Origin: a virus
Taxonomy: Duplodnaviria; Caudoviricetes
Strand: one strand, 5' to 3'
IMG/VR virus record: IMGVR_UViG_3300017971_000343
Location: 1 to 53,701 of that record
Length of the DNA stretch: 53,701 nt
The position numbers and the translations under genes were made by a program. Shown piece after piece: positions 23,288 to 51,817 of the stretch. The stretch's first letter is position 1. Each line of letters begins with the position of its first letter. A model generated the notes under the pieces. It was not told where the DNA came from. It ran no database searches and saw only the letters and a program-made list of their open reading frames with translations.

Positions 23288-23300
23288 ATCTTTAAATCTC

Positions 23301-25249: not shown

Positions 25250-25263
25250 CTATCTTCTCCTAT

Positions 25264-27982: not shown

Positions 27983-28725
27983 ATTGTTTCCTTTCTTAAA
28001 TTAGAAGGGTTAAACTCTATGCCTGCATAATTGCAATACATCTTATATCTTGCAAGCATCATAAAATATTTTCGTTTACTAAGCAAACCATCATATTTCT
28101 TGCTATGTCTCCACTTATATAATATTTGGGGGATATTGCTAATTTTACATTTGGTCATAAACCTAAAAAATAAATCGTAGTCCTGACATCTTTCAAATAT
28201 CTCATCATACATACCCGCTTCTTTTAACAACGATGTCCTGAACATTATAGAACCATGACAGAATTTATTTCTATTAAAAAAATCTTTTCGGATATCTATA
28301 TCTTTAGTTGGCGATTTCACATCCATTTTAAATTTACCGTTTTCATTTATTATCCTATACCATGTCCCAATTAAACCAAAGCCATCGTTATCTTCTAAAA
28401 AATCAATTTGCCTTACAAATCTATCGGGTAGAGAAATATCGTCTGCATCCTGTCTGGCTATATATTTAATGTTGGGATTATCGTTCAAAACCTGTCTTAT
28501 CAAAAAATTCAAAGATTTAGGAAGTCCATAATTCCCTTCCCTTGTAAATATTTTTATTTTTTCGTTACTTCTATATTCGTTGCAAACTTCATAACTATTA
28601 TCCGTAGCACCATCAATTAAAATGTAAAATAAATAATTATCGTAAATTTGGTTTAATATGGATTGTATGGCATCGTTGACATATTCACCTGCATTATATA
28701 CCGACATTATTACAGCAAGATTCAT
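27979..28725 (-). CDS. GT2 glycosyltransferase
   Basis: VIMSVYN, ARQDADD, QDYDL. Confidence 0.9.
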   Translation of the reverse strand: MNLAVIMSVYNAGEYVNDAIQSILNQIYDNYLFYILIDGATDNSYEVCNEYRSNEKIKIFTREGNYGLPKSLNFLIRQVLNDNPNIKYIARQDADDISLPDRFVRQIDFLEDNDGFGLIGTWYRIINENGKFKMDVKSPTKDIDIRKDFFNRNKFCHGSIMFRTSLLKEAGMYDEIFERCQDYDLFFRFMTKCKISNIPQILYKWRHSKKYDGLLSKRKYFMMLARYKMYCNYAGIEFNPSNLRKETI

Positions 28726-31700
28726 TTTTTATTCCTTACAAACAAATTGGGATGCGAGTCTTTAAAATATTTGCGAATTTTGTCGTCATGCCCTTTAGTA
28801 TATATAATATTATATTCATCTTTAAATTCATAATCGTTATTTTTAGCAAGTTCGTTATATATTTTTGATCCCGGCAACCCGATATATACATTCCTTGATA
28901 CCTGCCCCTTGGGGATATATTTATCTATAAAATTTTCGGTTTCAATACGATCTTGCTCTGTTTCATACGGAGTACCGAAAAGAAAAGAGGCATGCATGTT
29001 CATACCTATTCCCTTGCAATATTTTGCAATCTTTATGTTATCCTCCATTTTAAATCCCGGTTTTAATAAAGGCAATAACCTTTCAGAACCAGTTTCAAAC
29101 CCAATAAACAAACCTTTGCATCCAGCCCCTTGCATTTTATCAAGCAATTCAGGTGATAGATCTCTTACAGATGTTTCGCAATACCAATCTATGTCAATAT
29201 TATTTTGCTTCAAAAGATTACAAAAATTATAAATTCTTTCATTATTGAAACAAAAATTATTTTCCCTGAAGTAAATAGAACCAACACCTTTTTCTGCTTT
29301 TAAATATTCTATGTCTTTAATTATTCTTTCGGCACTTTGAAATCTATACTTATTGCCAGATATAGGACCAGAAGAACAAAAAGAACAATTATATGGACAA
29401 CCACGAGAAGTATTCATGTTGAAAAAAGGCAATTTGGATTTGACATGCGACTTATATTTTCTGTCACCAATCAAGTCATATGCAGGCATTGGCAATCCAT
29501 CTAGTTCTTTTATATATTTTGTCTTTATAACATGATCTTTTATTTTACCACTTATAAGATCTAAAATAACATTTTCAGCTTCACCTATAATAATATGATC
29601 TATTTCATCTGGATAATCTTCGGTTACAGACCAATGCGGACCACCAGATATTATTTTCACATTATGTTTTTGGCTTTTTAGTTTGCGAACCTGATTCATA
29701 ACATCTTTAATGCATATTGTGCAGGCATATATACCTACTATGTCAATATCATTACTTTCTAAATATTCAGAATCATAACTATCGGCAGGACCATAGTAGG
29801 GGTCTTTAAAAAAAATATTATGCCCCTCTTCCCTTAAAATAGAAGCTATGTACCCTAAGCCGATAGGAAATAATTTTTCCGATATACTAAAATAAATATC
29901 GTTTTGAATTGGTGCAGATGCAGTAGTTAATAAAATATTCTTGCAATTTTTCTTTGAATATTTTTTGATAATTTTTTCCCCTATCATTTTTCTAGTGCCA
30001 TCTAATTCAGTAGAATACGTCATGGATTTTTGGGAAATATTTACATCTACCACGATCTTGTCAATAAAATTCCACGCATCAACTCCATATTCGTCTAAAA
30101 CTCTAAAATTCATTTCCATGTCACCCAGACATGGCAATGTGTCATCAAAATACCCGATGTCGTCAAAAATTTCTTTCCTAAACATTCTATTACAAGTAGT
30201 CCAATTCCTACCTGTTTCCAAAGGCGATTCCCCTCTTTTTACCATATTGGCAAGAGTATAATTCTCCTCTGGTATTATGTCGCCACATCTATAATTAAAA
30301 TTTCTATTGGCTTTCCCATATACAGCCTTTATACCATTATTTGTAAATCCAGAAATTAAAAGTTCTAATGCATTTGGTCTAAAAAGATCATCATCATCTA
30401 ATTCTGTTACAAAATCTCCAGTTGCCAATTTTAATCCTGTATTTAAGGAAGCAAAAAGACCTAAATTATTGGAATGCCTAACGTAAATATAATTTTCAAG
30501 TTCAGAATCTTTTATTATATTGCGGACATCATCGCCTCCATCATTTACAACAATAACCTCATAGTTTTCATATGTTTGTTTCTTTATTGATTCCAATGCA
30601 CTTAATAATGGCTTCTCCCTATTGTACGTTGGGACTATAATAGATATTTTTTGCAAAGACGGCACAACTGTTTTGAAAACTCTTAAAACATCCTTAGATG
30701 TTATTGACTTTACACATATATCATTGCCACGTGGGCATTTGAGCTTTCTATTCATAGGACGATCTATAGACCAAATTCTACAGCCTAGACAATTTAAATT
30801 TTCATTGCGAATTGCTTTTAATCTTTCTGGATATAGCAAAACAAGTTCCGGGGGAACGCTACCTAGTATTACAGCACCCGGTTTATAATATGCATTGGCA
30901 ATATGCATTGGGGCACTGTCTATGCCGAAAAAACCAGAACAATTCTTTATAATTCCTGCCGATTCCTCCCATGATAAACCACAGTAACTATCAGCTATGT
31001 CTTGGGTCAAATTCCTACTCTTACCAATTTCTATAATTCTATACCCCATTTTCTTTATTTCCAACAAAGATTCTTTAGCAACATCTATTGGCATATTTCT
31101 TCCATCCCAAGGATTGGGACCCAAATGTACAACTATATATTTAAAATTAAAATATTTTTCTACCCATTCTGCTATTTTGTCGGTAAGAAAAAATTCTGGT
31201 CTTTTGTCTTTTAAATGTATTCCTGATTGTGCCATGTAAGAATCTACAATATGACCAATTGATTCCGATTTATGATACATGCATTCGTATGTCATGTCTA
31301 AGTCTATAACGCAATCGTATTTACTCTCATTTATTTTACTAGAAGTCCCTAAAATATTATCTATCTTTGGGTTATTAACTAATAATCCAGGAGCGTTTGT
31401 CACAATAGTTATTTCTGCGTAAACATTTTCTCTCTTTATCTGTTTTATCAATGGAGTTATTAAAAATACATCGCCAGAAGAAGATGTTCTTTTTATTAAA
31501 TATGATTTTTTAAAACTTTTATTTTTTATATAATTAGAGAATTTATCTACCAATATCTTTTCATTTTTTAAATTATATCCCCTTACATCCTCCCTAACGA
31601 GCCGGGAAGTTGGACACGATTTGTCATGTATCATATTAAAAGGAGTATGCTTTATCTTAAACCCTCGCATCCTTGCACATAAACACAAATCGGAATCCTC

Positions 31701-32552
31701 TGCATACGCAAATTCTAATTCAGGAGAAAATAAACCAAATTCTTCGGCATATTCTTTTTCTATTGCAAGACAACTGCCCTCAATGTAATCATAATTATCG
31801 GAATCAACACTATACCCCTTGCCATTATCTAAAAGACGACATTTAGTTGGTCCGCAAATTTTAACATCATGATCGGAAAACCCGGATAATATTTTATCCA
31901 ACCAGTAATCAGACACCGTAATGTCATTATTTAACATAAGAAAATAACGACCATTGGCTTTTTTAAATGCATATTTTTGCCCGCCGATAAATCCAATGTT
32001 TTTCTTGTGCTTTATTATTATTGTTTTTATGTCGTTCTCTTCCTTAAAAGATTGAATATATTCGTATGTATCATCTTGGCTATTATTATCAGTTAATATT
32101 AATTCATACCTTATATCGCCTTTAGAGTTTAAAATACTATTCAAACACTTTTTCGTTTGATCAATCCTATTGCAACACAATATTGATATGGAAAATATAA
32201 TATCTCTTTCGTCTATCTTGGATATTTTCTGATATTCATCCTGCTCATCTAAATCACCAACATTATCTTGCAATATTTCAATTTCATCTGAAGATATCGG
32301 TGTGTCATCGTAATGCATATTTATTATTTCAGGTCTTTCAATATTCGCAATTTTCGAAACCCCAAACTGATCCAATGCAAATGATGGAACGTCTTTTTCT
32401 TCAACACGTTCCCAGCCTTGAGTCAAAAGTGCTTTTACCGAAGCCCGTTTTTTTACAATACAATACCCTTCAAAACATTTAATTACTCCCTCATAATGAG
32501 TAGTGGTTGTATTCCTAAAATAACCTTTTTTATTCATCCAGTACATTTCCAC
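28722..32552 (-). CDS. Multidomain GT2 - GT9 - GT2 - B12-binding radical SAM fusion
   Basis: GT2 (DNNSQD, LNND, EDSDLC); GT9 (SGDV, GIDSAPMHIA); GT2 (IVPTYNR, DDDD); B12 domain (PIGLGYIA, GGPH, GEAE); radical SAM (TSRGCPYNCSFC). Confidence 0.9.
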   Translation of the reverse strand: MEMYWMNKKGYFRNTTTTHYEGVIKCFEGYCIVKKRASVKALLTQGWERVEEKDVPSFALDQFGVSKIANIERPEIINMHYDDTPISSDEIEILQDNVGDLDEQDEYQKISKIDERDIIFSISILCCNRIDQTKKCLNSILNSKGDIRYELILTDNNSQDDTYEYIQSFKEENDIKTIIIKHKKNIGFIGGQKYAFKKANGRYFLMLNNDITVSDYWLDKILSGFSDHDVKICGPTKCRLLDNGKGYSVDSDNYDYIEGSCLAIEKEYAEEFGLFSPELEFAYAEDSDLCLCARMRGFKIKHTPFNMIHDKSCPTSRLVREDVRGYNLKNEKILVDKFSNYIKNKSFKKSYLIKRTSSSGDVFLITPLIKQIKRENVYAEITIVTNAPGLLVNNPKIDNILGTSSKINESKYDCVIDLDMTYECMYHKSESIGHIVDSYMAQSGIHLKDKRPEFFLTDKIAEWVEKYFNFKYIVVHLGPNPWDGRNMPIDVAKESLLEIKKMGYRIIEIGKSRNLTQDIADSYCGLSWEESAGIIKNCSGFFGIDSAPMHIANAYYKPGAVILGSVPPELVLLYPERLKAIRNENLNCLGCRIWSIDRPMNRKLKCPRGNDICVKSITSKDVLRVFKTVVPSLQKISIIVPTYNREKPLLSALESIKKQTYENYEVIVVNDGGDDVRNIIKDSELENYIYVRHSNNLGLFASLNTGLKLATGDFVTELDDDDLFRPNALELLISGFTNNGIKAVYGKANRNFNYRCGDIIPEENYTLANMVKRGESPLETGRNWTTCNRMFRKEIFDDIGYFDDTLPCLGDMEMNFRVLDEYGVDAWNFIDKIVVDVNISQKSMTYSTELDGTRKMIGEKIIKKYSKKNCKNILLTTASAPIQNDIYFSISEKLFPIGLGYIASILREEGHNIFFKDPYYGPADSYDSEYLESNDIDIVGIYACTICIKDVMNQVRKLKSQKHNVKIISGGPHWSVTEDYPDEIDHIIIGEAENVILDLISGKIKDHVIKTKYIKELDGLPMPAYDLIGDRKYKSHVKSKLPFFNMNTSRGCPYNCSFCSSGPISGNKYRFQSAERIIKDIEYLKAEKGVGSIYFRENNFCFNNERIYNFCNLLKQNNIDIDWYCETSVRDLSPELLDKMQGAGCKGLFIGFETGSERLLPLLKPGFKMEDNIKIAKYCKGIGMNMHASFLFGTPYETEQDRIETENFIDKYIPKGQVSRNVYIGLPGSKIYNELAKNNDYEFKDEYNIIYTKGHDDKIRKYFKDSHPNLFVRNKK

Positions 32553-33256
32553 TCTCCTATATAATATTTCCCTTTTTTATACCCGTTCATTGCAACCCGT
32601 ATTGCCCTTACCCTCAAATCAGAACTCCCCCTGAATCTTTCTATTATTTTATTCTTTAATTCGTTTGGTCTTGCATGATGTTTAAAACATTTCAATGGTC
32701 TGCTCCAGTATTGTGTTTTCAAGCTGACTCTCGCCCAGTCAATATCGTCACATCCCCATTTCACCCCGGTTTCTGGTTCGTAACACCTGAACCCACCAAA
32801 CTCTTTCACAACAGGGTGACGGGCAAATATAACCCTGTACGCCCTGTGATGACAATGGTCTATTGTTATCTTCTCGTTTTCCCCAACTGTCATGCTGTCC
32901 ATTTTAGGCATCTTCTCAAACTCTTTTAACACGTCTTCATCCCATCCCGGCAACGCTTCAATGTTCCCGTCTGCCTTCACAAATATATCTTCAGGATTAG
33001 AATCCGGCATCTCTTTTAACCAGAAAATATTTCTTGCTGTAGCAGGCGATAAATGTTCGCTTGATACTTTAAATTCGTGTATCATACCTTTTTCTTTTAA
33101 TGCAGAAAGTTTAACTTCCATGTCAGGATCAGGGCTATGGTTGTCTACATAAAACACCTGAACATTATCCGGGTTCTTTGCGTTTTGCTTCCAACTAACA
33201 GCACATTGTTCCCATACATCAGGTCTGTTCCATTCAACAATAAATATTTTAAACAT
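32534..33256 (-). CDS. Divergent GT2-fold glycosyltransferase
   Basis: WNR, VDNHS, ARN, KADGN, WGCDDIDW. Confidence 0.65.
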   Translation of the reverse strand: MFKIFIVEWNRPDVWEQCAVSWKQNAKNPDNVQVFYVDNHSPDPDMEVKLSALKEKGMIHEFKVSSEHLSPATARNIFWLKEMPDSNPEDIFVKADGNIEALPGWDEDVLKEFEKMPKMDSMTVGENEKITIDHCHHRAYRVIFARHPVVKEFGGFRCYEPETGVKWGCDDIDWARVSLKTQYWSRPLKCFKHHARPNELKNKIIERFRGSSDLRVRAIRVAMNGYKKGKYYIGEWKCTG

Positions 33257-33266
33257 TTTATTCTCC

Positions 33267-36200
33267 TTATCCCTTCGCTAAATTTTTTGTAAGCCTGTAT
33301 AAATCATTTAGATCATCAAAAGATATGTTCTTTGACATATAATTCACAAGAAATGTCGCACCTGCCAACCCAGAAAAATGATCTGTAACTTTTACAGTGT
33401 CCAATAATTTCAAAGAAGGCAAATATGCAGAATTTATTTCCATCTCTGCCTGCACAGTATTGTATCTTCTTATAATATTATTGGCGATTGTAGTTGCCAC
33501 ATCATCTTCCTGAATATAAGGGTTTTCTATCTTTACTGTCTTGCCATAAGTCAGTGTGCCGGAAGTTGCACTTGCCTGAACAAAATCTTCTCCCGTAACC
33601 ACCGCTTCTTTCACAAGCCGATCCCTTCTCTGCCCTGTATACTTTACCGTTACTGCATTATCATTCTCCGTCAATGTGACTCCGGTAGTTGCAGAATGTG
33701 ATGTTATATTACCCCATGTTTTAAAATAAATGTCCCCCTGATTGTTAGTATATACAACTCCATCACAAGCCTGTGCAAGTTTGAAAAGAACATCCCCGAT
33801 GGATTGCTCTTGGATTGTAACATTGGAAAAATATTGTTCGTAATCCTCTAAAAATATATCTTCACCCGGTATATTTGCTTCAGTAAACAACAGATCATGC
33901 ATTATGTCCTTCACTCTCCATTGCCCCTGATAAATCTTGGGATCTGGAGTATTGTCTACCGGCATCCCCAACTTTGTGTCGATTGCTTCTCTTAATAAAC
34001 TCCTGCAATAAATCTGAGCAGTTTCATCATTTGATATTTCTACCCTGTCAATATAATAGCGTCCGCTTAAATAATACTCACTCCTACTACTAAGCTGAAA
34101 TCCAGTAAATATTCTTATTTCATCACTCAAATAATTCCTGTTATAAAATATTGAACTGGTATCAAGTTCAGAAAAATACCTATCTTCATTGTTTACAATT
34201 AAAGTAACATCTCCGGCTACTATATTGCCAAGATCGTCTGGCTTAACAGGAACTTCAGAATTTAAATCGCTAATAGATGTTATGTAATCTGTAATATTGA
34301 TCTTCTCGTCTTCCCTTGCACCCGAAGCCGGAACTAATTGCACTCTGTATATTGGAGTGGAATTTGTCGAGTTCTGAGCGGTCATAAAAGCTGTCGATGG
34401 AACCTGACCGGGATCTGTATATTCGACAGTAAAATTGTTTACTATAGGGCTTCTGCCTGTAGCATGTGTGTTGGCTAAAATTATTGCCCATCTTACGCTA
34501 TAAAAATAATCAGTAGTTGTTCCCGGCATCGCAACATATGTTTCAGGCATCGTTTGAGTTCCGGCAGATGAAGTTGACCAAACAGAATGCCAAACGGGTT
34601 TTTTCTCCCAACTGGCTGCAATCGTAACCGTATTATTGGAATATAAATAAAAACTACCAGATAAAGTTATGCCAACAGAAAGATTCCCGGTTTCAAATAC
34701 ATCGCCGATTATCGTTCCTGGCCCACCTCTTGGAGGTATCCTGCCTTCACCAGAATACAGCATGTTGTAACTGTCAATCGCCTTAAATAAATGTGGAGCC
34801 TGAATGTTATTCTCGTCCCATTCCCCGGAAGAACCAACATCTATTTGATAATCCCCAGCATTTAATTTGTTAAAATCTTCTGTGTATAACTGACATTCTG
34901 CACAATCAGTTGTCTTATTTGTCATATTAAGAGCATATCCCAGATAGCCACCTTCAATTACCGTTGCTCCTCCACGAAGATATAAAGTATTGCCCTTCCC
35001 TGAATTGTCTGTTATTAAATTTCCTGCACCCTCAAAATTGCTGGCAAAATCCCAGAAACCTAAACTTTGGTGCATGTCGGCCATTGCCCCATCATCCGAT
35101 AAGTCGAACTTATACCAGGGTGGCATAGGAAAGCTTGCATCCCCATTATTTATGAATTGCCTGTATGTAGGAACCATACCGCCAACTTCTCCCTGAGGAT
35201 TGATGAAAAGGATATCTAATCCAATATCGCAATGCCCTATATAACCCACTGTATATCCAGCTTTTTTGTTTTGATCCTGCAATGCTAAATTATAACCGTT
35301 CCCTAACATTGGTGGCATTGATAGGCTTGGGTCTAAAATTTTAGGACCTTCGCTACTTACGGATGTATACCCTTTCTTCCAGATAACATCCGGCAGACCA
35401 TAACCCTGACCATCCTGATTGCTCGTATTATAAGTAAAACTAAACATATGATTTATGTCAACAGATGGAAGATGCACGGACATATAGCCAGAGGGGTATG
35501 TTGATGTATCGAGATAATCTCTAACCAAATCCCTCCATTGCTGTGACGATTTGAGATGTCCCTGAGCAAGCATTACTCCATGATATGAAGCACCGGGGAA
35601 TTGTTGAACATTTGAAAATCCCCACGGTCCAATAGGATTTAATAGATCGCAATCATAAGTATCATCTCCGTTGTCTGTTACGTTTACAATTCTATTTAAT
35701 TGAACCTGAGCTCCACTCATGTATTCTGTTGCACCTACGGCAGGTCTACCCCAGAATAAAATATCCTGACCGCTACCTTCATAATCAGTAACTCCGTCAA
35801 CCCAAGAATATTGCCTTGTCAAAGTTACAGATGTATCCCCTTCTACAACTCCGTTTGTCATCATCCATGGACTTCTCGCAAAATAATCGGCACCACCCCA
35901 ACCATTTTCAAAACCGTTGCCCCCACCAATTCTCGGCATCATGGAGACCCGGTAACATTCAAGTTGATCCCCTGTAAATTGAGCAACAATATAATTCCAG
36001 TGATCATGCATCAGAAAATGTCCAAAACCCATATTCATACTTTGCTCAGGTGTAGGCTCTGCCGTATACCATTGACCATCGACATAAGCATGTGCCTGCA
36101 CCATATTTTCATGCGTTACTTCAACCCAGAAATTACCCATATCAAATAATACGGCACCATCAACGGGAGGGTATCCCAGACTTGACATTGGATAAACAAG

Positions 36201-38444: not shown

Positions 38445-38447
38445 CTA

Positions 38448-38885
38448 TTAAGAATCCCCAAGTGTAAATGTTGAAGGTATTTCGGAAAGTAAAGACGTTC
38501 CTACAAGTTCTATGTTTCCATAGTAACCTATAGGCGTAAATCCGGCTACGAACGTAAAATTAAAATCATTAGTCCATTGCACCATAAAAGATGCACCTGA
38601 CGCACTAACAGGCGCAGGGTTTATTATAAATTCCTGATGTGTATTATATACAGTCCTGAGATTATCATATTGATCATTTCTAATATAACTACTTTCGTTG
38701 AAGGTAAGATTAAAATGGATGATATAGCCACGATGATAATATTTTGTAAGCCCGCTACCGAGTTTTGTTTCGTTTTGAACATGCTCGTACCAGTGAGCTA
38801 TTTTAGGGTTGTATTCGAATTGGTATTCAGTATAGGGCGAATCGTCGTATAAGAATTTTATGTTGTCTTGATCAAAAACTGCCAT
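38448..38885 (-). CDS. Distal tail protein-like
   Basis: Position directly after the tape measure gene, size, and beta-rich sequence. Confidence 0.55.
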   Translation of the reverse strand: MAVFDQDNIKFLYDDSPYTEYQFEYNPKIAHWYEHVQNETKLGSGLTKYYHRGYIIHFNLTFNESSYIRNDQYDNLRTVYNTHQEFIINPAPVSASGASFMVQWTNDFNFTFVAGFTPIGYYGNIELVGTSLLSEIPSTFTLGDS

Positions 38886-38894
38886 TATTTATCT

Positions 38895-41912: not shown

Positions 41913-42410
41913 TTATCGTTTCACCCCCTTTAATTCTCTTTTTAAATTATCTTTTAAAATTTTCATCACATCTATGTCCTGCGCAGTCCATACAAGCACG
42001 GGTCTTGGTAGCATCTTGCTTGTTCCCTTAATTACCCACTCAACATGTTCATCCCATCCCTGCAACCATCCGACAGCACCTTTTATACCTTCCGTTATAT
42101 ACTCGGTTTTCTTGCCCAATTCGTCAGACATCATATGCTCCACTTCATGCACTCCCCATTCTGGTTCATGCCCGTGAAACTGTATCCCAGCATGTCTACT
42201 CGCAAAAGGATGGTCAAAATATGCTCCCAAAACATAATAATGCTGTTCTGGAGATCCTCCGTGCATCGTAAAAGATATATTTTGTTTAACGGCAGAATAA
42301 TATTCCTGTATTGTCCAATCCATAGCCCTTTTACATGCAGACCGAACTTCCTTTGTTTTGTCTTCCATCTGCTTCTTAAAATTTACGTGATATCCCTGTC
42401 TTTTTGCCAA
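41913..42410 (-). CDS. HK97 gp10-like neck/tail completion protein
   Basis: C-terminal GTSKMLPRP motif. Confidence 0.6.
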   Translation of the reverse strand: MAKRQGYHVNFKKQMEDKTKEVRSACKRAMDWTIQEYYSAVKQNISFTMHGGSPEQHYYVLGAYFDHPFASRHAGIQFHGHEPEWGVHEVEHMMSDELGKKTEYITEGIKGAVGWLQGWDEHVEWVIKGTSKMLPRPVLVWTAQDIDVMKILKDNLKRELKGVKR

Positions 42411-42413
42411 TCG

Positions 42414-42749
42414 CTACACCTTCTCCGCATATCCCCTTGATTGTAATTTGTTCATCGCCCTATCCAATGCTTCGTAATCTGCTTTCGTTTGAGGTTTTTT
42501 CAATACTACCCCCTTCTTTTCTCCTTTTGGGTCTTTTATCTTTTCGATCATCTTCTGATTTATCCTTGAATTATTGTAAACAAAGTTTCTAACTTGATCT
42601 CCTGTATGTTCCCACAAAAGCTCTCGATAAGTCCATCCGGTCTCCGTAATAATCCCAGCAATCATTTCTCCTATGGTTTCAATTTTGATGCCATCTGACT
42701 CAGCTTTGACTGTTTTAGAATTGATCTTATCGAAGAGAATTCGAAAAAA
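42414..42749 (-). CDS. Tail assembly chaperone, frameshift extension (lambda gpT-like)
   Basis: Overlaps the upstream chaperone in the -1 frame; entered at T TTT TTC; TGWTYRELLW. Confidence 0.65.
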   Translation of the reverse strand, partial: FFRILFDKINSKTVKAESDGIKIETIGEMIAGIITETGWTYRELLWEHTGDQVRNFVYNNSRINQKMIEKIKDPKGEKKGVVLKKPQTKADYEALDRAMNKLQSRGYAEKV

Positions 42750-43105
42750 TCGAACATCACATCGCATGACAGGCTTAACCCAAACTTTTCATTTTTTATC
42801 TGTTCTACACTAAAGCCTGTGTAGCAAGCCATCATTTCAAATAACTTGTCATGCCTTTCAGTATCGGTATCTTTCCTTAGCCTTTCAATAACATAGCCAA
42901 CGCTAAGCTCAGGATCACCTTCCTCTCTATACGCTTCTTTAAGTTCTTCCATCAGCATGTTGATTTTTAATTCATCCCCATAAAATATAGGCTTTAGCTT
43001 GATCTTCTCTCCGTTCGCATCTGTAATAACATCCTGATCCCCAAGAATCTCCTTGAATTCTGCAATTGCAACTTTTGCATCGTTTAGATTTTTAATCTCG
43101 TTCAT
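42671..43105 (-). CDS. Tail assembly chaperone (lambda gpG-like)
   Basis: Directly after the tail tube gene; carries a slippery heptamer near its 3' end. Confidence 0.7.
   Translation of the reverse strand: MNEIKNLNDAKVAIAEFKEILGDQDVITDANGEKIKLKPIFYGDELKINMLMEELKEAYREEGDPELSVGYVIERLRKDTDTERHDKLFEMMACYTGFSVEQIKNEKFGLSLSCDVMFDFFEFSSIRSILKQSKLSQMASKLKP
42743..42749 (-). other. Programmed -1 ribosomal frameshift site T TTT TTC
   Basis: X XXY YYZ heptamer correctly phased in the upstream frame (GAT TTT TTC); the downstream ORF is in the -1 frame. Confidence 0.7.
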
Positions 43106-43145
43106 GTTCCCTATATCCTTTTCTCCTTGTTTGTTGTTAAATTAT

Positions 43146-43173
43146 AAAAACAAGGGCGGGACATGCCCGCCCC
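43146..43173 (-). terminator. Rho-independent terminator after the tail tube gene
   Basis: GGGCGGG-catgt-CCCGCCC followed by TTGTTTTT. Confidence 0.85.
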
Positions 43174-43180
43174 GTTAAAT

Positions 43181-43765
43181 TTAAGACGCATTTAGGCGTC
43201 TGTATCTGTACAACTGGCTTCCTGCACTCAATGTAGTGCCAAGCCAATCTGAAGTTCCGTTCCACAAATCAAACGAGTAGTCAAATTTGTTGTAATCAGA
43301 AGGATTGAACGGATATGTCAATGCTCCGTTCCCTGAACATTTCCAAATATCGAGACTGATCGTAGCTCCTGTTGGCGTTCTGTGAAAAACTTCTAGTTGT
43401 AAATTAGCAACAGAAATCGTTCCCCCGAAATCATATCGTTCACTGCTTCCTGTAATAGCTGTAGTTCCTGCACCAAGGGCACGATACATATTCTCTATGT
43501 TCCACTCCCACCCCTTTACATTCAAAGTTCCTACCTCTTCAATACAATGTTTTATCGTAGTCCTCTGTGGTGTCCCCTGTTTACAACTCAATAAAGTTCG
43601 GGTGACCTCAAGCGTAACTTCATCTATAGTCCCAAAATCAGTTCCATTGTTATATGGTGTAACACCAGCGGCAGTAGGGGTCGTATAACTTTGACCATAC
43701 AATATACATTGACCTAAAGTTATACTGTCAGTTGTTTGACTAGGTATGTTATAATTAGTCGCCAT
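43181..43765 (-). CDS. Major tail tube protein
   Basis: Position, size, strong GGGGGTGA ribosome-binding site, terminator behind it, Thr/Gly-rich beta sequence. Confidence 0.75.
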   Translation of the reverse strand: MATNYNIPSQTTDSITLGQCILYGQSYTTPTAAGVTPYNNGTDFGTIDEVTLEVTRTLLSCKQGTPQRTTIKHCIEEVGTLNVKGWEWNIENMYRALGAGTTAITGSSERYDFGGTISVANLQLEVFHRTPTGATISLDIWKCSGNGALTYPFNPSDYNKFDYSFDLWNGTSDWLGTTLSAGSQLYRYRRLNAS

Positions 43766-43783
43766 TTAATATCACCCCCTATT

Positions 43784-44194
43784 TTAAGTTCTCCTCAATG
43801 CAAATACTTCGAACGTGCAATAACAATTATATGTTATCGGTTCGCTGTCGGGGTCTATTGTATGCCTCGGAGTATCTGGCATCCCCCCCGTTACTATATG
43901 GTAATTTGTATTTCTAAAATTTTTGATCGCCAATGCACTCTTCATCGCAGAATATATTTGAGCAGCTTCCTTTAATGTTTCTGCATGAGTTCTTATTTCA
44001 AACATGAATCTGGATTCTGTGCTCAATGCTCCACCAACCCGTACGGGCATTACAATATAAAATGTTATGCAGGGAAATTCAACACTTCTTATTTCGGCAA
44101 TCCTCTGCGGATAAACCCTGTCTTTCACGTATCCTTTGACAGTACTGTCTGACTCTAACTCGTTAATAAATATTTGAAATAATTTATGCAACAT
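43784..44194 (-). CDS. Tail terminator/completion protein
   Basis: VKDRVYP...FPCITF; immediately upstream of the tail tube gene. Confidence 0.7.
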   Translation of the reverse strand: MLHKLFQIFINELESDSTVKGYVKDRVYPQRIAEIRSVEFPCITFYIVMPVRVGGALSTESRFMFEIRTHAETLKEAAQIYSAMKSALAIKNFRNTNYHIVTGGMPDTPRHTIDPDSEPITYNCYCTFEVFALRRT

Positions 44195-44197
44195 ATT

Positions 44198-46612
44198 CTA
44201 ATCCGGCACTATATCCTTTCTGCCCGGCATACCTACAATCTCGACATCTTCTGCATATGGCATAATATGATCAAGCATTCTCTTGCTTGCACTATAAACA
44301 GGATGAGCAGGATTTGTATTGGCTATAGCATGTTCAAGGCACGTTCTTGCCTTTCTTATATATAAAGATGCAAGTTGGTTGTGAGATTGAGTCAACTTCG
44401 GAGAATGTATCATTGCCTGCTTGAAATGATATTCTGAATCATCCTCCCTGCCTTCGTTCAATCTGTGTAATGCGAGTGAGAAATGAGCCATGCCATCATT
44501 AGGATTCCCGGCAAGTATCTTCTCGCATATCCTTGCATATCTTTTTAATTTCTTTTCAACAGCCATCGGGTCTTTTAAATATCCAAAATGATGTATGCCT
44601 TCCTGCGGATTGGCAACAAATATTGTTTTGCCATACATTTTTATGTTCGATAAAGAATCGTTCACACTTTCATGTACTTCTCCGCTATATTTCACTTCAG
44701 GCAAATTCCTAAACATTCTACTGTTTTCCGATATGAAATTCTTGCCGCTTGGAACATAATTTATCACAGGGATAACATAAGCAAGCACAGGCTCTTCTAT
44801 CATGCGATAAAATCTAAAAACATCCAATCCCATATTACCGTTACTGAGGCGTTCATCTGGATCTAATTGAAAACACCATTTGGCAGTTGATTTAGATCTT
44901 GCAAAATCCCTCGCATCTGCAAAGTTATCCTTCCATACATAATCATACACTTTCGCCCCATAATGTTCTGCAATCCACTTTGTATTGTCTTTGGAACCAG
45001 TGTCAACTATGACCATCTCATCAAAAAACATATGGTAGCTGTCAAGGAACACTTCAAGATTTTCTTCTTCATTTCTGGCAATCATTATAAGCCCAAGAGT
45101 ATTGTCGGGTGTGTATTTTACAAGTTTCACGTTTACATCTATAAGATGAGAATAATCAGATGCTCCGATCATTCTGGTTCTTTTGTCCGTATCCATGTCC
45201 TGATACCAGTTATATTTCCTTACCCGATCATCCCTGTCAACATACCCATAATGCCTGATCCTGTAAGGAGTAATTACTACATTTTCTATAGGAACCCATG
45301 GCACTGAATTACAATGGAATCCCTGCGGGTGATTGCTGACAATATGCTGGTTAGGCATATTCCTTACCATCCTGACATTCGCCATGTTGCCGAAGATCCC
45401 ATCTGTTCTCTGCATATCTTCGGAATCCCAATGCGTTATGTATCTGAATATGTATGCATGAGTATCAGGGCGAATCGGGTTCATCAGCTTTTCAGCTACT
45501 TCTCTCGTAAACTTTTCTTCAAGTTCTTCGTCCCCGTCGTTGATGATGACCCAGTCTGGATTTCGTGATTTGCACAATTGATAGAGTATCTCTCGATCCC
45601 TTGCTTCGTTAAAGGTAGTTTCTGTTTGTCGATGGATTTCGACAACTTTCTTATGTTTCTGCGCAATTTCCACCGTCTTATCCGTAGAGTTATCATCGAA
45701 AACAACGATTTCATCTGCAACCTCCTCCATTTTAGTTAGCACCCTATCAAACCAGCGTTCTACGTTTTTTACCCGATAGCCAGCGACAAGTTTCTTGTTT
45801 GATTTTTGAGAATTTATCATCTCCCATTTCTTGTGATACGGGAACCTGTTTTTCAGTCCTCTCCTTGCAAAGTCCTGTTTCAATCGAAGGGTCGTCTGCC
45901 CTCCAACATGATGAACAAAGGCGTTTCTTGCAATTACACTGGCATGCCCGGCAAGGTCTGCACGAACAATATAATCGTTATCCTCAAACCCTAACGGCAT
46001 ATCCGTGTTGTTCATTCGGTATTTGTTCAAATCGTCGAGTTCCCCGACCGCTTCAAAACATTCCCTCGTCATTATCCAACAAAAACCCGAAAGGAAACCT
46101 GCTCTTTGAGCAAGGGATTCCCCCTTAATCCTGCACTCCTGCCTTCTTATCTTATCAAGCAAAACAGAAAATTCATGCAAAGTGTTGATGTTATATCTTG
46201 GTTCTTTAATCTGTTGCAATCCTGCCACATGATTCGACATGGGACCAGCAATACCGATCTTGTCCATGCCGAGTATCAATTCGGGGTGTTCTATTGCGTA
46301 AATTAACTTTGTGTCCCATCCCTGAGTGAATACAAGGTCGTTGTTCAATACGGCAAGGTAATTACAATCCTTTGAAGCGGCATTTAATCCGAGATTTATT
46401 GCCTTGCTGTAAGTTAGAAGCGTATCCGAACGCAATACTTTTACTTCGGGGAATTTCTTCAAACATTCAGTTGTCCCGTCAGTTGAAGCGTTATCGACTA
46501 CGATTAGCTGGTAGGGCGTTTCAGTATATGCCATTGCGCTTTTAATTGCATTGACAGTATGTTCCCATCCATCAGAAGCCGCAATCACCATTGCCAGTTT
46601 GTTCTTAGACAT
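44198..46612 (-). CDS. Triple-GT2-domain glycosyltransferase with C-terminal TPR-like helices
   Basis: VDNASTD/LNND/FEDND; FDDNSTD/DGDE; IARNEE/DTGS.D/DPDE/VHE; helical C-terminus. Probable start MSKNK at 46612. Confidence 0.9.
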   Translation of the reverse strand: MSKNKLAMVIAASDGWEHTVNAIKSAMAYTETPYQLIVVDNASTDGTTECLKKFPEVKVLRSDTLLTYSKAINLGLNAASKDCNYLAVLNNDLVFTQGWDTKLIYAIEHPELILGMDKIGIAGPMSNHVAGLQQIKEPRYNINTLHEFSVLLDKIRRQECRIKGESLAQRAGFLSGFCWIMTRECFEAVGELDDLNKYRMNNTDMPLGFEDNDYIVRADLAGHASVIARNAFVHHVGGQTTLRLKQDFARRGLKNRFPYHKKWEMINSQKSNKKLVAGYRVKNVERWFDRVLTKMEEVADEIVVFDDNSTDKTVEIAQKHKKVVEIHRQTETTFNEARDREILYQLCKSRNPDWVIINDGDEELEEKFTREVAEKLMNPIRPDTHAYIFRYITHWDSEDMQRTDGIFGNMANVRMVRNMPNQHIVSNHPQGFHCNSVPWVPIENVVITPYRIRHYGYVDRDDRVRKYNWYQDMDTDKRTRMIGASDYSHLIDVNVKLVKYTPDNTLGLIMIARNEEENLEVFLDSYHMFFDEMVIVDTGSKDNTKWIAEHYGAKVYDYVWKDNFADARDFARSKSTAKWCFQLDPDERLSNGNMGLDVFRFYRMIEEPVLAYVIPVINYVPSGKNFISENSRMFRNLPEVKYSGEVHESVNDSLSNIKMYGKTIFVANPQEGIHHFGYLKDPMAVEKKLKRYARICEKILAGNPNDGMAHFSLALHRLNEGREDDSEYHFKQAMIHSPKLTQSHNQLASLYIRKARTCLEHAIANTNPAHPVYSASKRMLDHIMPYAEDVEIVGMPGRKDIVPD

Positions 46613-46994
46613 TCTTATTCTCCTCGTCATTTAAATATTTTTCGTCGCCGTCATATCTATATTCATCCGGTATATATAAACCAACTTCATCTGGGTTGTT
46701 AGTTTTTTCCCATTTTATAAACTCGATAGAGACTGTTCTTGTAGGCATCCCACATCTTATATCTACGATCCAACAATCAATATCGTTAACCATAAAATCA
46801 GAAAAGTCGTAAGTCAAGAGATCGTATATTGGTTTAGGATATACATGGTAATTATACATATGCTTTAAAGCATTTACCCAACAGTTAGAATTATCTTCTT
46901 TGTGATATTTTATAACATAGGGTTTTCTTTTTTTTATCAAATTGAGATAATACTGCTTACCCCTATTCTCTATGCTTTTACCTATGTCTATCAT
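46605..46994 (-). CDS. Hypothetical protein
   Basis: GGAG ribosome-binding site; operonic position. Confidence 0.5.
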   Translation of the reverse strand: MIDIGKSIENRGKQYYLNLIKKRKPYVIKYHKEDNSNCWVNALKHMYNYHVYPKPIYDLLTYDFSDFMVNDIDCWIVDIRCGMPTRTVSIEFIKWEKTNNPDEVGLYIPDEYRYDGDEKYLNDEENKNV

Positions 46995-46996
46995 TC

Positions 46997-47563
46997 TTAT
47001 TCTCCTGCATCTTCGTTTTTGTTAAAATTAAGAATATCATAAATCTCAAATATATGATCTATGAAATGTTCTTCTAACTGATCTTTCACTTCCATCCAGC
47101 GTTTATGTCTAATGCAGTCAATAGAAAGATCTTCGTTGTTTTCCTTCTTGGCTACAATTTTTTCGCAAATTCTGCATTTCCATTCTACAATATTATCTGT
47201 ACATATATAGCTAAAAAAAGAAAACATGGTTTTTGGCACATTGTTCTTGTAATGGAATTTATCTTCATGTTCTTTAATCAGTGTTTTTATTTTTGATTCA
47301 ACATTGTTCACATCCGACCAACTATAATATGGATATGGATTGCCCTTGATATAAGGAGTTAAAGGTTCATCCGTTCCCGGAGGAACATATGGTTGCGTTG
47401 TAATAGTAGGGATTGAGACAGTATTTGAATGTCCAATTATCTCAATACTTTTTACTAATTCGGCTATTGCCACTATAAGATAATGATATTCAGGTTTTCC
47501 CTTACCTTTAGTTTCTTCAATACATTCTTGAAGTTTTTCGTTTAAAGATTTATTTAATTTCAT
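46997..47563 (-). CDS. Hypothetical protein with C2H2-like C-terminus
   Basis: CRIC...HFIDH; GGAG ribosome-binding site. Confidence 0.5.
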   Translation of the reverse strand: MKLNKSLNEKLQECIEETKGKGKPEYHYLIVAIAELVKSIEIIGHSNTVSIPTITTQPYVPPGTDEPLTPYIKGNPYPYYSWSDVNNVESKIKTLIKEHEDKFHYKNNVPKTMFSFFSYICTDNIVEWKCRICEKIVAKKENNEDLSIDCIRHKRWMEVKDQLEEHFIDHIFEIYDILNFNKNEDAGE

Positions 47564-47573
47564 TCTTATTCTC

Positions 47574-48143
47574 CTATATCTCCGTTTTTGTTAAAATCAT
47601 TTCTTTATGAGTATCCCCATCAAAAGATGTTATGTCTCTAATATTAGAAATAACATAATACTTCGGAACTTTATTTTCTTTTTTTACCAATATATCATCG
47701 TTCTTTAAATCCACATTTGTTGCAGAATAAAAATCAGCATAATAATTAGTCCTCTCCCCCGGCAATTTCAACACTTCCATGTTGGTCTTTGTTCTGAAAT
47801 AACCGTAGATAGTATACTTTGTTACCAGATTTCTGACATCTACGTTCGCTTCATCAAAAGTTTGGATCTTCATATAACCGGATAAACTCGCTGGAGTTAC
47901 CCCCGATAGAGTCGTAAATAAATTCGTGCTTCTCTTTGATATATCGCTAGTATAAGTTAGTGTTTCTACTGTCGAACCATTCAAATAAATCGTTCCCGAT
48001 TGAGCACTATTAAGTGTTATTAATATTAAAGATTCTTTTGCAGGATTTGGCTTTATGGAAACTTCATCAATTATTCCGTCATATAAAACATTGGTATACC
48101 TCTTTATCTCGACTAACTCGTTAGAAATGTCCTGTATCGTCAA
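47574..48143 (-). CDS. Head-closure-like protein with an internal insertion
   Basis: Follows the adaptor; the C-terminus DLKNDDIL...Y.I..I......H.E..L resembles head-closure proteins. Confidence 0.5.
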   Translation of the reverse strand: MTIQDISNELVEIKRYTNVLYDGIIDEVSIKPNPAKESLILITLNSAQSGTIYLNGSTVETLTYTSDISKRSTNLFTTLSGVTPASLSGYMKIQTFDEANVDVRNLVTKYTIYGYFRTKTNMEVLKLPGERTNYYADFYSATNVDLKNDDILVKKENKVPKYYVISNIRDITSFDGDTHKEMILTKTEI

Positions 48144-48153
48144 TTTTATTCTC

Positions 48154-48741
48154 CTATTTGAATTGCCGCCTGAAAGGGTGAAGCAACGTATAAATTCCGG
48201 GAGGCATCCCGTCAGTTAAATCATACCTTGTGTAATAATCTTCCCCTGCCTTTCTGGTTCTTATATCGTCAACACCGGAATCATAAAAATCACGCCTTAC
48301 CAGCTTCATAGTTGCAAGTTTTATCGCATCAGGGATAGCCGTTGAAGCATACCCTGCCGTATAGGTAATCTCGAACTCCTTGTCCCCCTCATACCAGTAG
48401 TCTTTTATGTAGTTTATAACATCTATATTATCAGTCGGTTTTTTTCTCAACATCCCCTTGTCGTAATACGAGTTATAATCGGTTCCCTCTACAACAGCAG
48501 TCCCATGACTCGTTGCCCCTGCTATGCTCGTAACCGGATACTGCTTTAAAAATATCGCAACCTGCTTGTATTTAATGTCATGGTATTCGGTATACGTATC
48601 AGATATTATGTCCCTGTGAAGCCATTGCTGAATCGAAGCAGTATATCCCTTTATAAGCGTATCAAGCCAGCCGTCATATTTTTCTTCGTCAACCAGCTTG
48701 CAAGCCATCTTTGCTTCATTTAAAGTGATAAACTTTGCCAT
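48154..48741 (-). CDS. Head-tail adaptor (gp6/gp15-like)
   Basis: FITLNEAK, YPVTSI, ITYTAGY...IPDAIKLA, LLHPFR. Confidence 0.85.
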   Translation of the reverse strand: MAKFITLNEAKMACKLVDEEKYDGWLDTLIKGYTASIQQWLHRDIISDTYTEYHDIKYKQVAIFLKQYPVTSIAGATSHGTAVVEGTDYNSYYDKGMLRKKPTDNIDVINYIKDYWYEGDKEFEITYTAGYASTAIPDAIKLATMKLVRRDFYDSGVDDIRTRKAGEDYYTRYDLTDGMPPGIYTLLHPFRRQFK

Positions 48742-48762
48742 CGCATAGACTCCTATTAATAT

Positions 48763-49209
48763 TTATTTTTTGGCATTAGGGTTGTGACCCTTAATGTATA
48801 ATTGTAAATGGCTCGTGGGCATAAAAGCATCCCCGCATCCACATTTACATATTCTCTCTGATAAAACTTTCTTTGGCTTTTTATTGAGATTAGACCTTCC
48901 TTTTCTCCCGTAAGTATCCTGCATATATTCCTCTCTCGTAGATGGAAGGGTTTCGCTTTTCCTTTGCTCCCTGCTGTTTTTATCCAGCAAACCCCTCTTT
49001 ACAAAATGATCCCATACATTCTGAGGAAGATCATCGACTGTAATTACTACCGGGAATCCCCTGATTCTCACAGCCGGAACATATTTGTCGTTCTTTACAA
49101 CAGCGTAACCCTTGTAGCATTTAACTATTTCGTCATAAAGCCGCACTTTAGTGACACACGTGTTGTTTGTTATGCCCCCAGCCATGTTTTGCGATAATAT
49201 CGTTGTCAT
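48763..49209 (-). CDS. Capsid-adjacent hypothetical protein
   Basis: N-terminal ~50 aa resemble the N-terminus of the 1276-aa glycosyltransferase; C-terminal CKCGCG...YIKGHN zinc motif. Confidence 0.6.
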   Translation of the reverse strand: MTTILSQNMAGGITNNTCVTKVRLYDEIVKCYKGYAVVKNDKYVPAVRIRGFPVVITVDDLPQNVWDHFVKRGLLDKNSREQRKSETLPSTREEYMQDTYGRKGRSNLNKKPKKVLSERICKCGCGDAFMPTSHLQLYIKGHNPNAKK

Positions 49210-49228: not shown

Positions 49229-49277
49229 AAAAATCGGGGAGCGAGGAAGGAGAATAAAATCTAATCCCCGCATCCCC
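49229..49277 (-). terminator. Intrinsic terminator after the major capsid gene (large CU-rich loop)
   Basis: GGGGATGCGGGGA...TCCTCGCTCCCC followed by GATTTTT. Confidence 0.65.
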
Positions 49278-51804: not shown

Positions 51805-51817
51805 TAATGTTCCCCCC

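Follow-up and report, generated by a model that had tools for sequence, protein, structure and literature searches.

A previously undescribed N-terminal domain shared by a giant glycosyltransferase and a small protein encoded next to the major capsid gene of a tailed virus

A giant multidomain glycosyltransferase of an uncultured Caudoviricetes virus and a 148-aa protein encoded next to the major capsid gene of the same virus have homologous N-termini, and the shared segment is a real, conserved and autonomous N-terminal domain of approximately 65–70 residues, which was previously undescribed. Both proteins are encoded in the stretch of DNA analysed here (hereafter the window; 53,701 nucleotides, IMG/VR record IMGVR_UViG_3300017971_000343). 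The domain is regarded as autonomous because it recurs in other proteins, where it precedes an unconserved stretch and then unrelated payloads at the C-terminus. Irrespective of what it does, the domain represents a family that is new and very rare, with seven clusters among 1.84 billion protein representatives. We infer that it is a docking domain, and we estimate a probability of about 40 % for a tethering mechanism in which the phage head or procapsid is the leading candidate partner, while the capsid as such remains a speculative target.

Two proteins with homologous N-termini

The gene of the giant enzyme (28722–32546; minus strand, like the 148-aa gene and its two neighbours) encodes the domain order GT2-GT9-GT2-B12/radical-SAM. 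A preliminary description of this DNA had given the product 1276 residues from a GTG at 32552; the giant ORF itself stands, but its start is most likely the ATG at 32546, with an AGGAG located seven bases upstream, and in the public protein set the enzyme has 1274 residues. Counted from that ATG, the shared domain covers residues 1 to ~65 (32352–32546; profile A3 E 2.1e-23) and is followed by an acidic linker that is predicted to be disordered (residues ~66–116, 32199–32351; pLDDT < 50 at residues 68–78 of an 82-residue model) and by the catalytic body (28722–32198), to which Pfam and the homologues P0015 and P0016 assign GT2, GT9-like, GT2, B12-binding and radical SAM parts. The Pfam matches above the gathering score are PF00535 (177.6 bits with a cut-off of 23.3, E 2.6e-52, in two stretches), PF04055 (76.4 bits, cut-off 29.5, E 3.9e-21) and PF02310 (43.4 bits, cut-off 32.1, E 3.6e-11), and PF01075 is slightly below its cut-off of 22 with 21.1 bits (E 2.2e-4). 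P0015, named GT2/heptosyltransferase by its source, aligns through its residues 969–1463 with enzyme residues 117–628, and P0016 through residues 5–446 with enzyme residues 119–570, the catalytic relatives aligning from enzyme residue 117–119 onward only. Among 24 homologues of parts of the enzyme (P0015–P0038) there was no convincing match to the domain profile (best E 0.029), and since the catalytic homologues are without it, the domain is considered an add-on to the enzyme.

The gene of the 148-aa protein (48763–49209) begins with the same domain (residues 1–72, 48994–49209; profile A3 E 1.3e-29), continues with a basic, predicted disordered linker (residues ~73–117, 48859–48993; pLDDT < 50 at residues 86–91 and 101–112) and ends in a zinc-type motif, CxCGCG..GH (48763–48858 including the stop codon), which is invariant in four orthologues. 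Upstream it adjoins a major capsid protein gene of the HK97 type (49288–50250; PF05065 E 6.3e-14, PF17236 1.2e-8, phrog_212 1e-19) and downstream a head-tail adaptor gene (48154–48741; phrog_442 E 2.3e-19, PF24163 1.3e-3). Examination of the translations showed both ORFs to be present as originally described, and the neighbour had been correctly recognised as the major capsid gene. The low-complexity linkers attributed to both proteins have to be redefined: a stretch of this kind does lie behind the domain in each of them, but it is predicted disordered, acidic in one and basic in the other, and not strictly low-complexity.

The ungapped match between the two N-termini comprises 28 residues with 10/28 identities (enzyme residues 18–45, nt ~32412–32495, against residues 25–52 of the 148-aa protein, nt ~49054–49137). 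BLASTP aligns enzyme residues 10–63 with residues 12–69 of the 148-aa protein (19/58 identical, 31.2 bits, E 2e-5), a similarity that is longer than the segment first described, and no second similarity between the two proteins was found by this method, the remaining HSPs all having E values of at least 0.44. When 72 ORFs were compared all-against-all by BLASTP, E was 0.003 for this pair. The Smith-Waterman score of the pair, 74, was reached by none of 1000 shuffles of the whole 148-aa protein (mean 37.6, maximum 66) and by none of 5000 shuffles of N-terminus against N-terminus (mean 22.6, maximum 52, z 12.3), so that the alignment passes the shuffled control proposed for it. With phmmer, the 75-aa N-termini were reciprocal best non-self matches among the 553 six-frame ORFs of the window of at least 40 aa (E 3.7e-5 and 2.6e-4; runners-up 0.94 and 0.045), and a seven-sequence profile recognised the same two N-termini and no others in the window (E 1.3e-29 in the 148-aa protein and 2.1e-23 in the enzyme; next 0.17). 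The domain of the 148-aa protein is 47, 37 and 32 % identical to zinc-type domains elsewhere, compared with 26 % to the enzyme copy of the same genome.

A rare domain family with variable payloads

The preliminary description had proposed a profile search for the cargo to which the segment is fused, and this search, performed over 1,835,955,588 protein representatives (threshold E ≤ 0.001), yielded nine proteins, namely the two of the window, five further carriers with unrelated C-terminal payloads behind the domain (P0005, P0006, P0007, P0009 and P0010; 85–217 aa, the match beginning at residue 12–22) and two proteins with internal repeats. The latter, P0008 and P0011, were set aside and are not counted as carriers, their matches being short (profile positions 6–26 and 22–44), within the repeats and not N-terminal; in a 38-protein set their E values are no better than 0.0012 and 0.0014. 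A domain profile search among 2500 candidates found six members, all of them already known.

In all seven carriers the domain is placed at the extreme N-terminus, followed by an unconserved stretch and then by a variable payload, which is the CxCGCG..GH zinc motif in four carriers, a 20-aa basic tail in one (P0010), an unknown region of ~90 aa behind a K-rich linker in one, and the giant enzyme, with its 1150 aa of three glycosyltransferases and B12/radical-SAM, in one. The contigs on which the five further carriers are encoded have lengths of up to 1.3–7.3 kb, and a contig with the enzyme has 71,406 bases, more than the window. The 85-aa carrier with the basic tail is taken as a complete ORF because all four members of its cluster are 85 aa long. 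The linkers of the zinc-type orthologues vary in length and composition, and that of P0005 is acidic, like the enzyme linker. The enzyme aligns with P0007 from residue 1 (BLASTP E 8e-12), and the extreme N-terminus is conserved within each subtype, its motif being MxxFLK for the zinc type and MY[WC]M for the enzyme type. The idea that the C-terminus of P0007 represents the start of a GT2 domain found no support in BLASTP or Pfam. Five aromatic positions are conserved within ~50 residues; the invariant positions (Y, C, G and P) may serve the structure and need not form a conserved surface for binding.

Known families gave no counterpart of the domain. A Pfam scan of all seven members detected no family common to more than one of them (best E 0.012), PHROGs had no match to the domain in any of the seven (best E 0.048), and a sequence profile search of the PDB gave nothing significant and no phage head protein (best E 0.029, a partial match of 30 residues). 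In IMG/VR no close relatives were found of the two window proteins, P0005, P0007, P0009 or P0010, and neither the domain (E ≤ 1) nor the zinc part (E ≤ 0.01) had a tblastn match in 50,697 phage records. When the alignment of the four orthologues was searched against metagenome, viral and genome contigs, it matched C-terminal zinc motifs only and never the domain, and a word-based homologue search with the 148-aa protein returned only itself among eight candidates.

Predicted fold

AlphaFold2 predicts a small two-layer alpha/beta fold with the same order of elements in both window copies, beta1-beta2-beta3-beta4-alpha1-beta5-alpha2, and the possibility raised beforehand that the predicted folds might differ was thus not borne out. 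In the enzyme copy the strands are predicted at residues 3–6, 14–17, 20–25 and 28–31, followed by a helix (34–42), a strand (46–48) and a second helix (55–61), with mean pLDDT values of 76–84 for 10-residue blocks over residues 21–60. The corresponding elements of the 148-aa protein are strands 3–6, 21–23, 28–32 and 35–38, helix 41–49, strand 54–56 and helix 63–71, with block means of 87–90 over residues 21–70. In the models, the conserved extreme N-terminus forms strand 1 of the sheet.

Judged from these models, the fold is a generic one. Foldseek searches of the PDB with both models (ranks to 50) gave nothing at E ≤ 0.001 (best 0.89 and 0.38), and in the two VIA-align wide searches (top 50) the best Z scores, 4.3 and 4.5, were under the noise level stated for the tool. 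The BFVD search with Foldseek (top 50) also gave nothing at E ≤ 0.001; an uncharacterised 72-aa phage protein at rank 2 (prob 0.99, TMt 0.61, E 0.12) carries no functional information. The ESM Atlas contained no match of at least 0.9. The matches listed included no capsid-binding protein and no decoration or cement protein of the gpD, Soc or Dec types, but they are weak throughout (best Z 4.5), so that this absence carries little weight.

The zinc-type motif of the 148-aa protein

The residues C121, C123, G124, C125, G126, P131, G141 and H142 are invariant in four of four zinc-type orthologues, and matches to the motif C-x-C-G-C-G ... G-H came from 10 loci in metagenome contigs, 6 in viral and 3 in genome contigs. 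In other contigs it is located N-terminal to HNH (3/8) and TnsA-like (1/8) endonuclease domains (loci L006, L010, L017 and L009), and it is the same motif that the 148-aa protein carries in its last 30 residues (tblastn E values from 1e-7 to 5e-5 in the candidate sets). In these endonucleases, however, the motif precedes the nuclease domain, whereas the 148-aa protein has the new domain instead, and Pfam detected no nuclease domain in it at E ≤ 0.1 or at E ≤ 5, which also sets it apart from the HNH proteins. A GIY-YIG nuclease was rejected by eye, the motif order and the conserved Arg not fitting, and an AP2 or NUMOD4-type DNA-binding module was dropped since Pfam gave no match. The association of the zinc motif with phage endonucleases hints at DNA binding and speaks for DNA no less than for the capsid.

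Genomic setting

All genes from the portal to the glycan cluster are on one strand. The order on the head side is portal, ClpP-like and XkdF-like proteases, a 294-aa protein (50316–51200), capsid, the 148-aa gene and the head-tail adaptor; further along there is an 810-aa multi-GT2 protein in the midst of head-tail and tail genes, and after the tape measure and a 1725-aa protein comes the giant enzyme, which heads a series of 10 glycosyltransferase, methyltransferase and radical-SAM genes together with one 205-aa ORF without a family match. The 810-aa glycosyltransferase, although situated within the structural module, is without the domain according to the seven-sequence profile, an observation that speaks against head docking. 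C5 and N6/N4 DNA methylases are also encoded in the window.

Discussion

The domain would act as a tethering module that binds one lineage-specific partner and places the payload borne by the linker at that partner. A docking architecture is suggested because the N-terminal domain is portable, is combined with diverse payloads and is absent from the catalytic relatives of the enzyme, and the head or procapsid is the leading candidate partner because the 148-aa gene lies inside the head-assembly cassette and both genes belong to the late structural operon. The enzyme would then be held on the assembling particles, which would lead to their glycosylation, and the zinc-finger protein would be held at the head, where it would contact DNA. 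In its complete form, as a portable virion-docking module by which the assembling head of a large phage would hold both a glycan assembly line of 1274 aa and, independently, a zinc finger that binds DNA, this reading is doubtful.

The preliminary description had proposed a small docking domain that binds capsid, scaffold or portal. The portable N-terminal architecture is as expected for such a domain, but beyond gene position no result points to any of these three partners, and the additional statement that there was direct evidence for the glycan system targeting the virion is not justified, the sole argument for the head being where the 148-aa gene lies, with the capsid gene on one side and the adaptor gene on the other. 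Free-standing endonuclease-type genes are frequently found beside capsid genes, and the adjacency may therefore reflect an insertion site rather than a function. Moreover, cassettes of glycosyltransferase and radical-SAM genes near the tail genes of other large phages have been read as serving modification of the host O-chain and not virion glycosylation (PMC7029224).

It is rather unlikely that the domain instead binds nucleic acid; the 148-aa protein would in that case be a two-module DNA or RNA binder, and phage DNA would be the destination of the enzyme, which might for instance produce a complex methylated glycan on a modified base. The top structural neighbours are RRM, ferredoxin-like and NusG/Spt5 NGN domains, which would be in line with this, but these matches are all weak and do not rise above noise (best Z 4.5; Foldseek E at least 0.38). 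The occurrence of the zinc motif in front of HNH and TnsA-like nucleases, the basic linker of the 148-aa protein and the basic tail of P0010 point in the same direction, while P0005 and the enzyme have acidic linkers. DNA methylases are present in the window, and glycosylation of DNA by phage enzymes of the GT-A and GT-B types is known (10.1101/2023.12.21.572611); in that work, however, the DNA glycosyltransferases adjoin C5-MT and 5mYOX genes, whereas here the C5-MT gene (6401–7540) is more than 12 kb from the closest gene of the glycan cluster (at 20247), and no 5-methylpyrimidine dioxygenase was found among the 10 larger left-side ORFs scanned.

We also assign a low probability to a homotypic association module, through which the 148-aa protein and the enzyme would pair, or each would oligomerise, the 148-aa protein being an adaptor, a regulator or an acceptor substrate. 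Two diverged paralogues have been retained in one genome, the greater similarity of the 148-aa domain to foreign zinc types than to the enzyme copy of its own genome fits a long co-maintenance, and P0010, which is little more than the domain, could serve as a competitor. Against this, the stretches behind the domain in the zinc-type proteins are neither Ser/Thr-rich nor conserved, as might be expected of an acceptor region. A co-fold of enzyme residues 1–68 with residues 1–78 of the 148-aa protein (score 0.00, mark 0.32, made without controls) speaks neither for nor against binding.

In polypeptide GalNAc-transferases a tethered lectin domain steers the enzyme to an already glycosylated substrate, and a lectin-like glycan-binding module could in the same way direct the giant enzyme and let the 148-aa protein bind the same glycan. 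The five conserved aromatic positions, the flexible linker that tethers the domain to GT-A type catalytic domains, and the large glycan gene cluster around the enzyme gene agree with this, but the aromatics may merely form the core, no similarity to carbohydrate-binding modules was seen in Pfam or the PDB, and six of the seven carriers, the shorter members, are without a glycosyltransferase domain in Pfam, which makes a lectin quite improbable. That the similarity is due to chance or composition, without a common function, can hardly be maintained: the identity is only ~30 % across ~55 residues and the initial scan took in many ORFs, but no shuffle reached the observed score, each N-terminus is the best match of the other in the window, the enzyme N-terminus is clearly related to that of P0007, and the N-terminal position is kept in five independent carriers.

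The wider interest is that it is largely unknown how phage glycosyltransferases find their targets, whether virion proteins, DNA or the host envelope. The domain offers a concrete handle on this question, since its partner would reveal the substrate compartment of the ~12 kb glycan gene cluster.

Comparison with known systems

In its gene position the 148-aa protein can be compared to gpFI of phage lambda, a DNA-packaging accessory protein that is encoded between the major capsid and head-tail joining genes; both are small proteins made of two parts with a flexible linker. Glycosylation of mycobacteriophage virions was reportedly described by Freeman et al. in 2023, and we know of no shared docking domain from that system. 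Glycosylated phage virions thus have a precedent (PMC12582341), and the resemblance to the window consists in phage-encoded glycosyltransferases that are associated with structural genes and, if the head is the target, in glycosylated virion proteins. Should the capsid prove to be the partner, the present domain would be the first to be defined as recruiting an enzyme to the capsid in phage virion glycosylation, and it would provide a ready-made tag for protein loading or display on this capsid type.

The capsid targeting sequence of phage T4 is a peptide of ~10 residues, which acts via the scaffolding core and is lost through cleavage by the prohead protease. The element in the window is not such a short peptide; it is a predicted folded domain of ~65–70 residues (block pLDDT up to 90) with a long linker. 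The two have in common that they are N-terminal elements shared by otherwise unrelated phage proteins with diverse payloads, and the T4 sequence is a tag that loads unrelated proteins, foreign ones among them, into the phage head (PMC3012670). Chlorovirus PBCV-1 A064R, a protein of 638 aa and three domains, has no separate non-catalytic N-terminal tag in the portion of the source at hand (PMC9614988). The methylating part of the window enzyme is also different in kind, being a B12/radical-SAM domain. What A064R shares with the giant enzyme is that one viral polypeptide combines several glycosyltransferase domains with a methyltransferase activity, and the product of A064R in PBCV-1 is the glycan of the major capsid protein (PMC9614988).

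Homology of the N-terminal domains

Both genes paired in the preliminary description are real open reading frames on the minus strand, one encoding the 1276-aa giant enzyme (28722-32552) and the other a 148-aa protein (48763-49209), and the ungapped 28-residue match claimed for their N-termini is present with 10/28 identities. BLASTP lengthens it to residues 10-63 against 12-69 (19/58 identical, E 2e-5), while the remaining matches between the two proteins start at E 0.44, in keeping with the claim that they are otherwise unrelated. The Smith-Waterman score of 74 was reached by none of 1000 whole-protein shuffles (maximum 66) and by none of 5000 shuffles of the N-terminus (maximum 52; z 12.3). 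Among the window's 553 six-frame ORFs, the two N-termini pick each other as best non-self match (E 3.7e-5 and 2.6e-4). Comparing 72 ORFs all against all gives the pair E 0.003, and the family profile finds exactly two copies of the domain within the window. The match is not due to chance, and the reported similarity is both confirmed and strengthened by BLASTP, shuffles and profile. The ATG at 32546 of the enzyme is preceded by AGGAG, and another in-frame ATG (32537) overlaps the TGA of the upstream gene as ATGA; translation probably starts at ATG 32546 and not at the annotated GTG (32552), and the 1274-aa form is the one in the public protein set (P0004).

In its catalytic body the enzyme has two GT2 domains with a GT9-like part between them, followed by B12-binding and radical SAM domains. 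For residues 100-640, 24 homologues were identified; residues 969-1463 of the closest, P0015, align with enzyme residues 117-628, and residues 5-446 of P0016 with 119-570. None of the 24 gave a convincing match to the domain profile (best E 0.029). Since the alignments begin at residue 117-119 and the domain is absent from these homologues, residues 1-116 (domain and acidic linker) are, as judged from the alignments, a lineage-specific N-terminal addition.

A profile of the two window segments, searched against 1.84 billion representative proteins, returned nine proteins at E <= 0.001, of which two are the window's own and five are new carriers (P0005, 188 aa; P0006, 142 aa; P0007, 217 aa; P0009, 134 aa; P0010, 85 aa). 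P0008 and P0011 were left out as carriers, their matches being short and inside internal repeats. The domain is N-terminal in all seven carriers, in which four positions (Tyr, Cys, Gly and Pro) are invariant, and the first residues are kept within each subtype (MxxFLK or MY[WC]M). Four carriers (P0002, which is the 148-aa protein, and P0005, P0006 and P0009), here called zinc-type, continue with an unconserved stretch that varies in length and charge, and close with the motif C-x-C-G-C-G...G-H. P0010 has the domain and a 20-residue basic tail only, and is a complete gene because each of the four proteins in its cluster has 85 aa. P0007 is similar to the enzyme N-terminus from residue 1 (E 8e-12) and has a Lys-rich linker behind the domain, then about 90 residues without a family match; the sole giant carrier among the seven is the enzyme of the window. 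The copy in the 148-aa protein is 47, 37 and 32 % identical to zinc-type domains elsewhere against 26 % to the enzyme copy of its own genome, from which the two subtypes appear to be old paralogues and not a recent duplication, in a comparison of seven sequences of about 55 residues each, too few for a firm tree. Neither Pfam nor PHROGs has a usable match to the domain, and the same holds for the ESM Atlas and for PDB sequences searched with a profile; the domain, for which there is neither a curated family nor a solved relative, is new, with only seven sequence clusters in the 1.84 billion representatives.

Predicted structure

AlphaFold2 models of both copies were built from 7-row alignments, and the order of elements is identical in the two, which share their alignment and are not independent. 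The model of the 148-aa protein has strands at 3-6, 21-23, 28-32 and 35-38, a helix at 41-49, a strand at 54-56 and a helix at 63-71 (10-residue block means of pLDDT 87-90 over residues 21-70), and that of the enzyme has strands at 3-6, 14-17, 20-25 and 28-31, a helix at 34-42, a strand at 46-48 and a helix at 55-61 (76-84 over residues 21-60). The stretch after the domain is predicted to be disordered in both proteins. Foldseek found no significant neighbour in the PDB (best E 0.89 and 0.38 for the two models) or in BFVD (best E 0.089), and the best VIA-align wide values, Z 4.3 and 4.5, fall on RRM and ferredoxin-like folds and lie at the level that the tool gives as noise. The BFVD entry A0A6J7WW69, an uncharacterised 72-aa protein of an uncultured Caudovirales phage, superposes on the domain with an rmsd of 1.9 over 60 columns at 17 % identity (prob 0.99, E 0.12, TM 0.61 by target) and on these models may be a distant stand-alone relative.

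The zinc motif of the 148-aa protein

With the four zinc-type orthologues as query, matches were found at 10 loci in metagenome, 6 in viral and 3 in genome contigs, in none of which the shared domain was covered; the matches run through query residues 102-148, except at one tandem-motif locus, which matches from residue 52. In these loci the CxCGCG..GH motif, as one copy or in tandem, forms the front part of other proteins, and on unrelated phage and metagenome contigs (L006/L014/L015, L010, L017, L009/L018, L013 and L004) these are endonucleases of the HNH and TnsA-like types and small proteins in which Pfam finds no domain. Among the 8 of 15 translated ORFs that were scanned against Pfam, three have HNH, one has a TnsA-like endonuclease domain and four have none; no Pfam family covers the motif itself in the proteins scanned, and Pfam finds no nuclease domain in the 148-aa protein. 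The motif is thus an accessory module that is widespread among phage endonucleases, and its simplest reading is a putative nucleic-acid-binding zinc finger.

Genome context

With a completeness of about 36 % as estimated by CheckV for the 53,701 bases of the IMG/VR virus record, which the window covers whole, and a capsid protein for which 17 of 50,697 phage records give a match, the nearest with only 24-29.5 % identity, the window is a fragment of a tailed phage that is large, uncultured and poorly related. The minus strand holds 65 of 72 ORFs in a greedy non-overlapping set. The head module runs on one strand in the order portal, ClpP-like protease, XkdF-like protease, 294-aa protein, capsid, 148-aa protein and adaptor, so the 148-aa gene lies between an HK97-type major capsid gene upstream (PF05065 E 6e-14; phrog_212 E 1e-19) and a head-tail adaptor gene downstream (phrog_442 E 2e-19). 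The two protease-type genes adjoin (51181-52510, minus strand) and overlap by about 50 nt, the ClpP-like one at 51818-52510 (PF00574 E 2e-23) and the XkdF/S78-like one at 51181-51867 (PF14550 E 1e-14). A GC-rich hairpin with a U run lies between the capsid gene stop and the 148-aa gene (49229-49277, minus strand); a 91-nt stretch there has an MFE of -24.2 kcal/mol (z -1.9; 10 of 200 shuffles fold equally well), a simple terminator scan does not call it, and it may be an attenuator reducing expression of the genes past the capsid gene.

After the adaptor follow, on the same strand, three small genes, an 810-aa protein, five small genes and the tape measure gene (phrog_9483 E 1.5e-22), then 145-, 1725- and 240-aa proteins and the giant enzyme. 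The 810-aa protein (44198-46630, minus strand) has three GT2-type stretches (PF00535 E 1.2e-40; phrog_13126 E 1.7e-34) and lies amid head-tail and tail genes, far from the main glycan cluster and without the shared domain. Beyond the enzyme come two GT2 genes, an ORF of 205 aa with no family match, three adjacent paralogous class-I SAM methyltransferases (24413-26711, minus strand, 26-37 % identical) and a tandem duplication (20247-24413, minus strand) of a Glyco_trans_1_2-like and radical SAM gene pair (20247-21185 and 21195-22232 against 22352-23287 and 23301-24413; 35 % and 38 % identical, E 3e-51 and 5e-67), followed by 629- and 269-aa proteins and an amidase. Replication and DNA methylase genes lie beyond on this strand, a part that holds an N6/N4 DNA methylase (10922-11593, PF01555 E 4e-37), a DUF3987 protein (9224-10888) and a C5 cytosine DNA methylase (6401-7540, PF00145 E 1.5e-82). 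From their common orientation with the head and tail genes, the glycan genes are likely expressed late, with the structural operon.

Discussion

The shared domain has the anatomy of a tethering module, because a folded N-terminal domain is followed by an unconserved stretch modelled as disordered and by interchangeable payloads, and is absent from the relatives of the enzyme. It would thus tether or dock its variable payload, with the phage head as the leading candidate partner, a tentative reading to which we give a probability of roughly 40 %. What favours the head is the position of the gene and the analogy with the capsid targeting sequence of T4, and nothing else. The docking part of the preliminary description is accordingly reasonable in view of the modular architecture, while the capsid as its target is not established, and nor is the "direct evidence" seen there for a glycan system acting on the virion. 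Of the rival explanations, the shared domain itself, apart from the putative zinc finger at the other end of the 148-aa protein, could bind nucleic acid; the two copies could pair the enzyme and the 148-aa protein with each other; or the domain could bind glycan. Docking, with the head favoured, remains our leading reading, and the observation, which is real and rare, lends itself to testing.

Precedents exist for glycosylated virions. They are described for mycobacteriophages (PMC12582341), and in chlorovirus PBCV-1 the three-domain A064R is described as making part of the capsid glycan (PMC9614988). By contrast, similar cassettes of glycosyltransferase and radical SAM genes by the tail-fibre genes of pelagimyophages are read in one report as modifying the host O-chain (PMC7029224). 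Elsewhere DNA is reported to be glycosylated by phage GT-A and GT-B enzymes encoded beside C5-MT and 5mYOX genes (10.1101/2023.12.21.572611); in contrast to the pathways as outlined there, the C5-MT of the window is more than 12 kb off, and no TET/JBP-type dioxygenase was found among 10 ORFs scanned.

A concept-level search of the literature, in which an unnamed domain cannot be sought by name, gave no account of phage glycosyltransferases bearing a tag of this sort. The capsid targeting sequence of T4 is a short cleaved peptide, whereas the element here is a predicted folded domain. The T4 sequence provides an analogue for an N-terminal targeting element (PMC3012670). Targeting or docking elements shared by the N-termini of phage proteins are of a kind already known, and what is new here is the domain itself.
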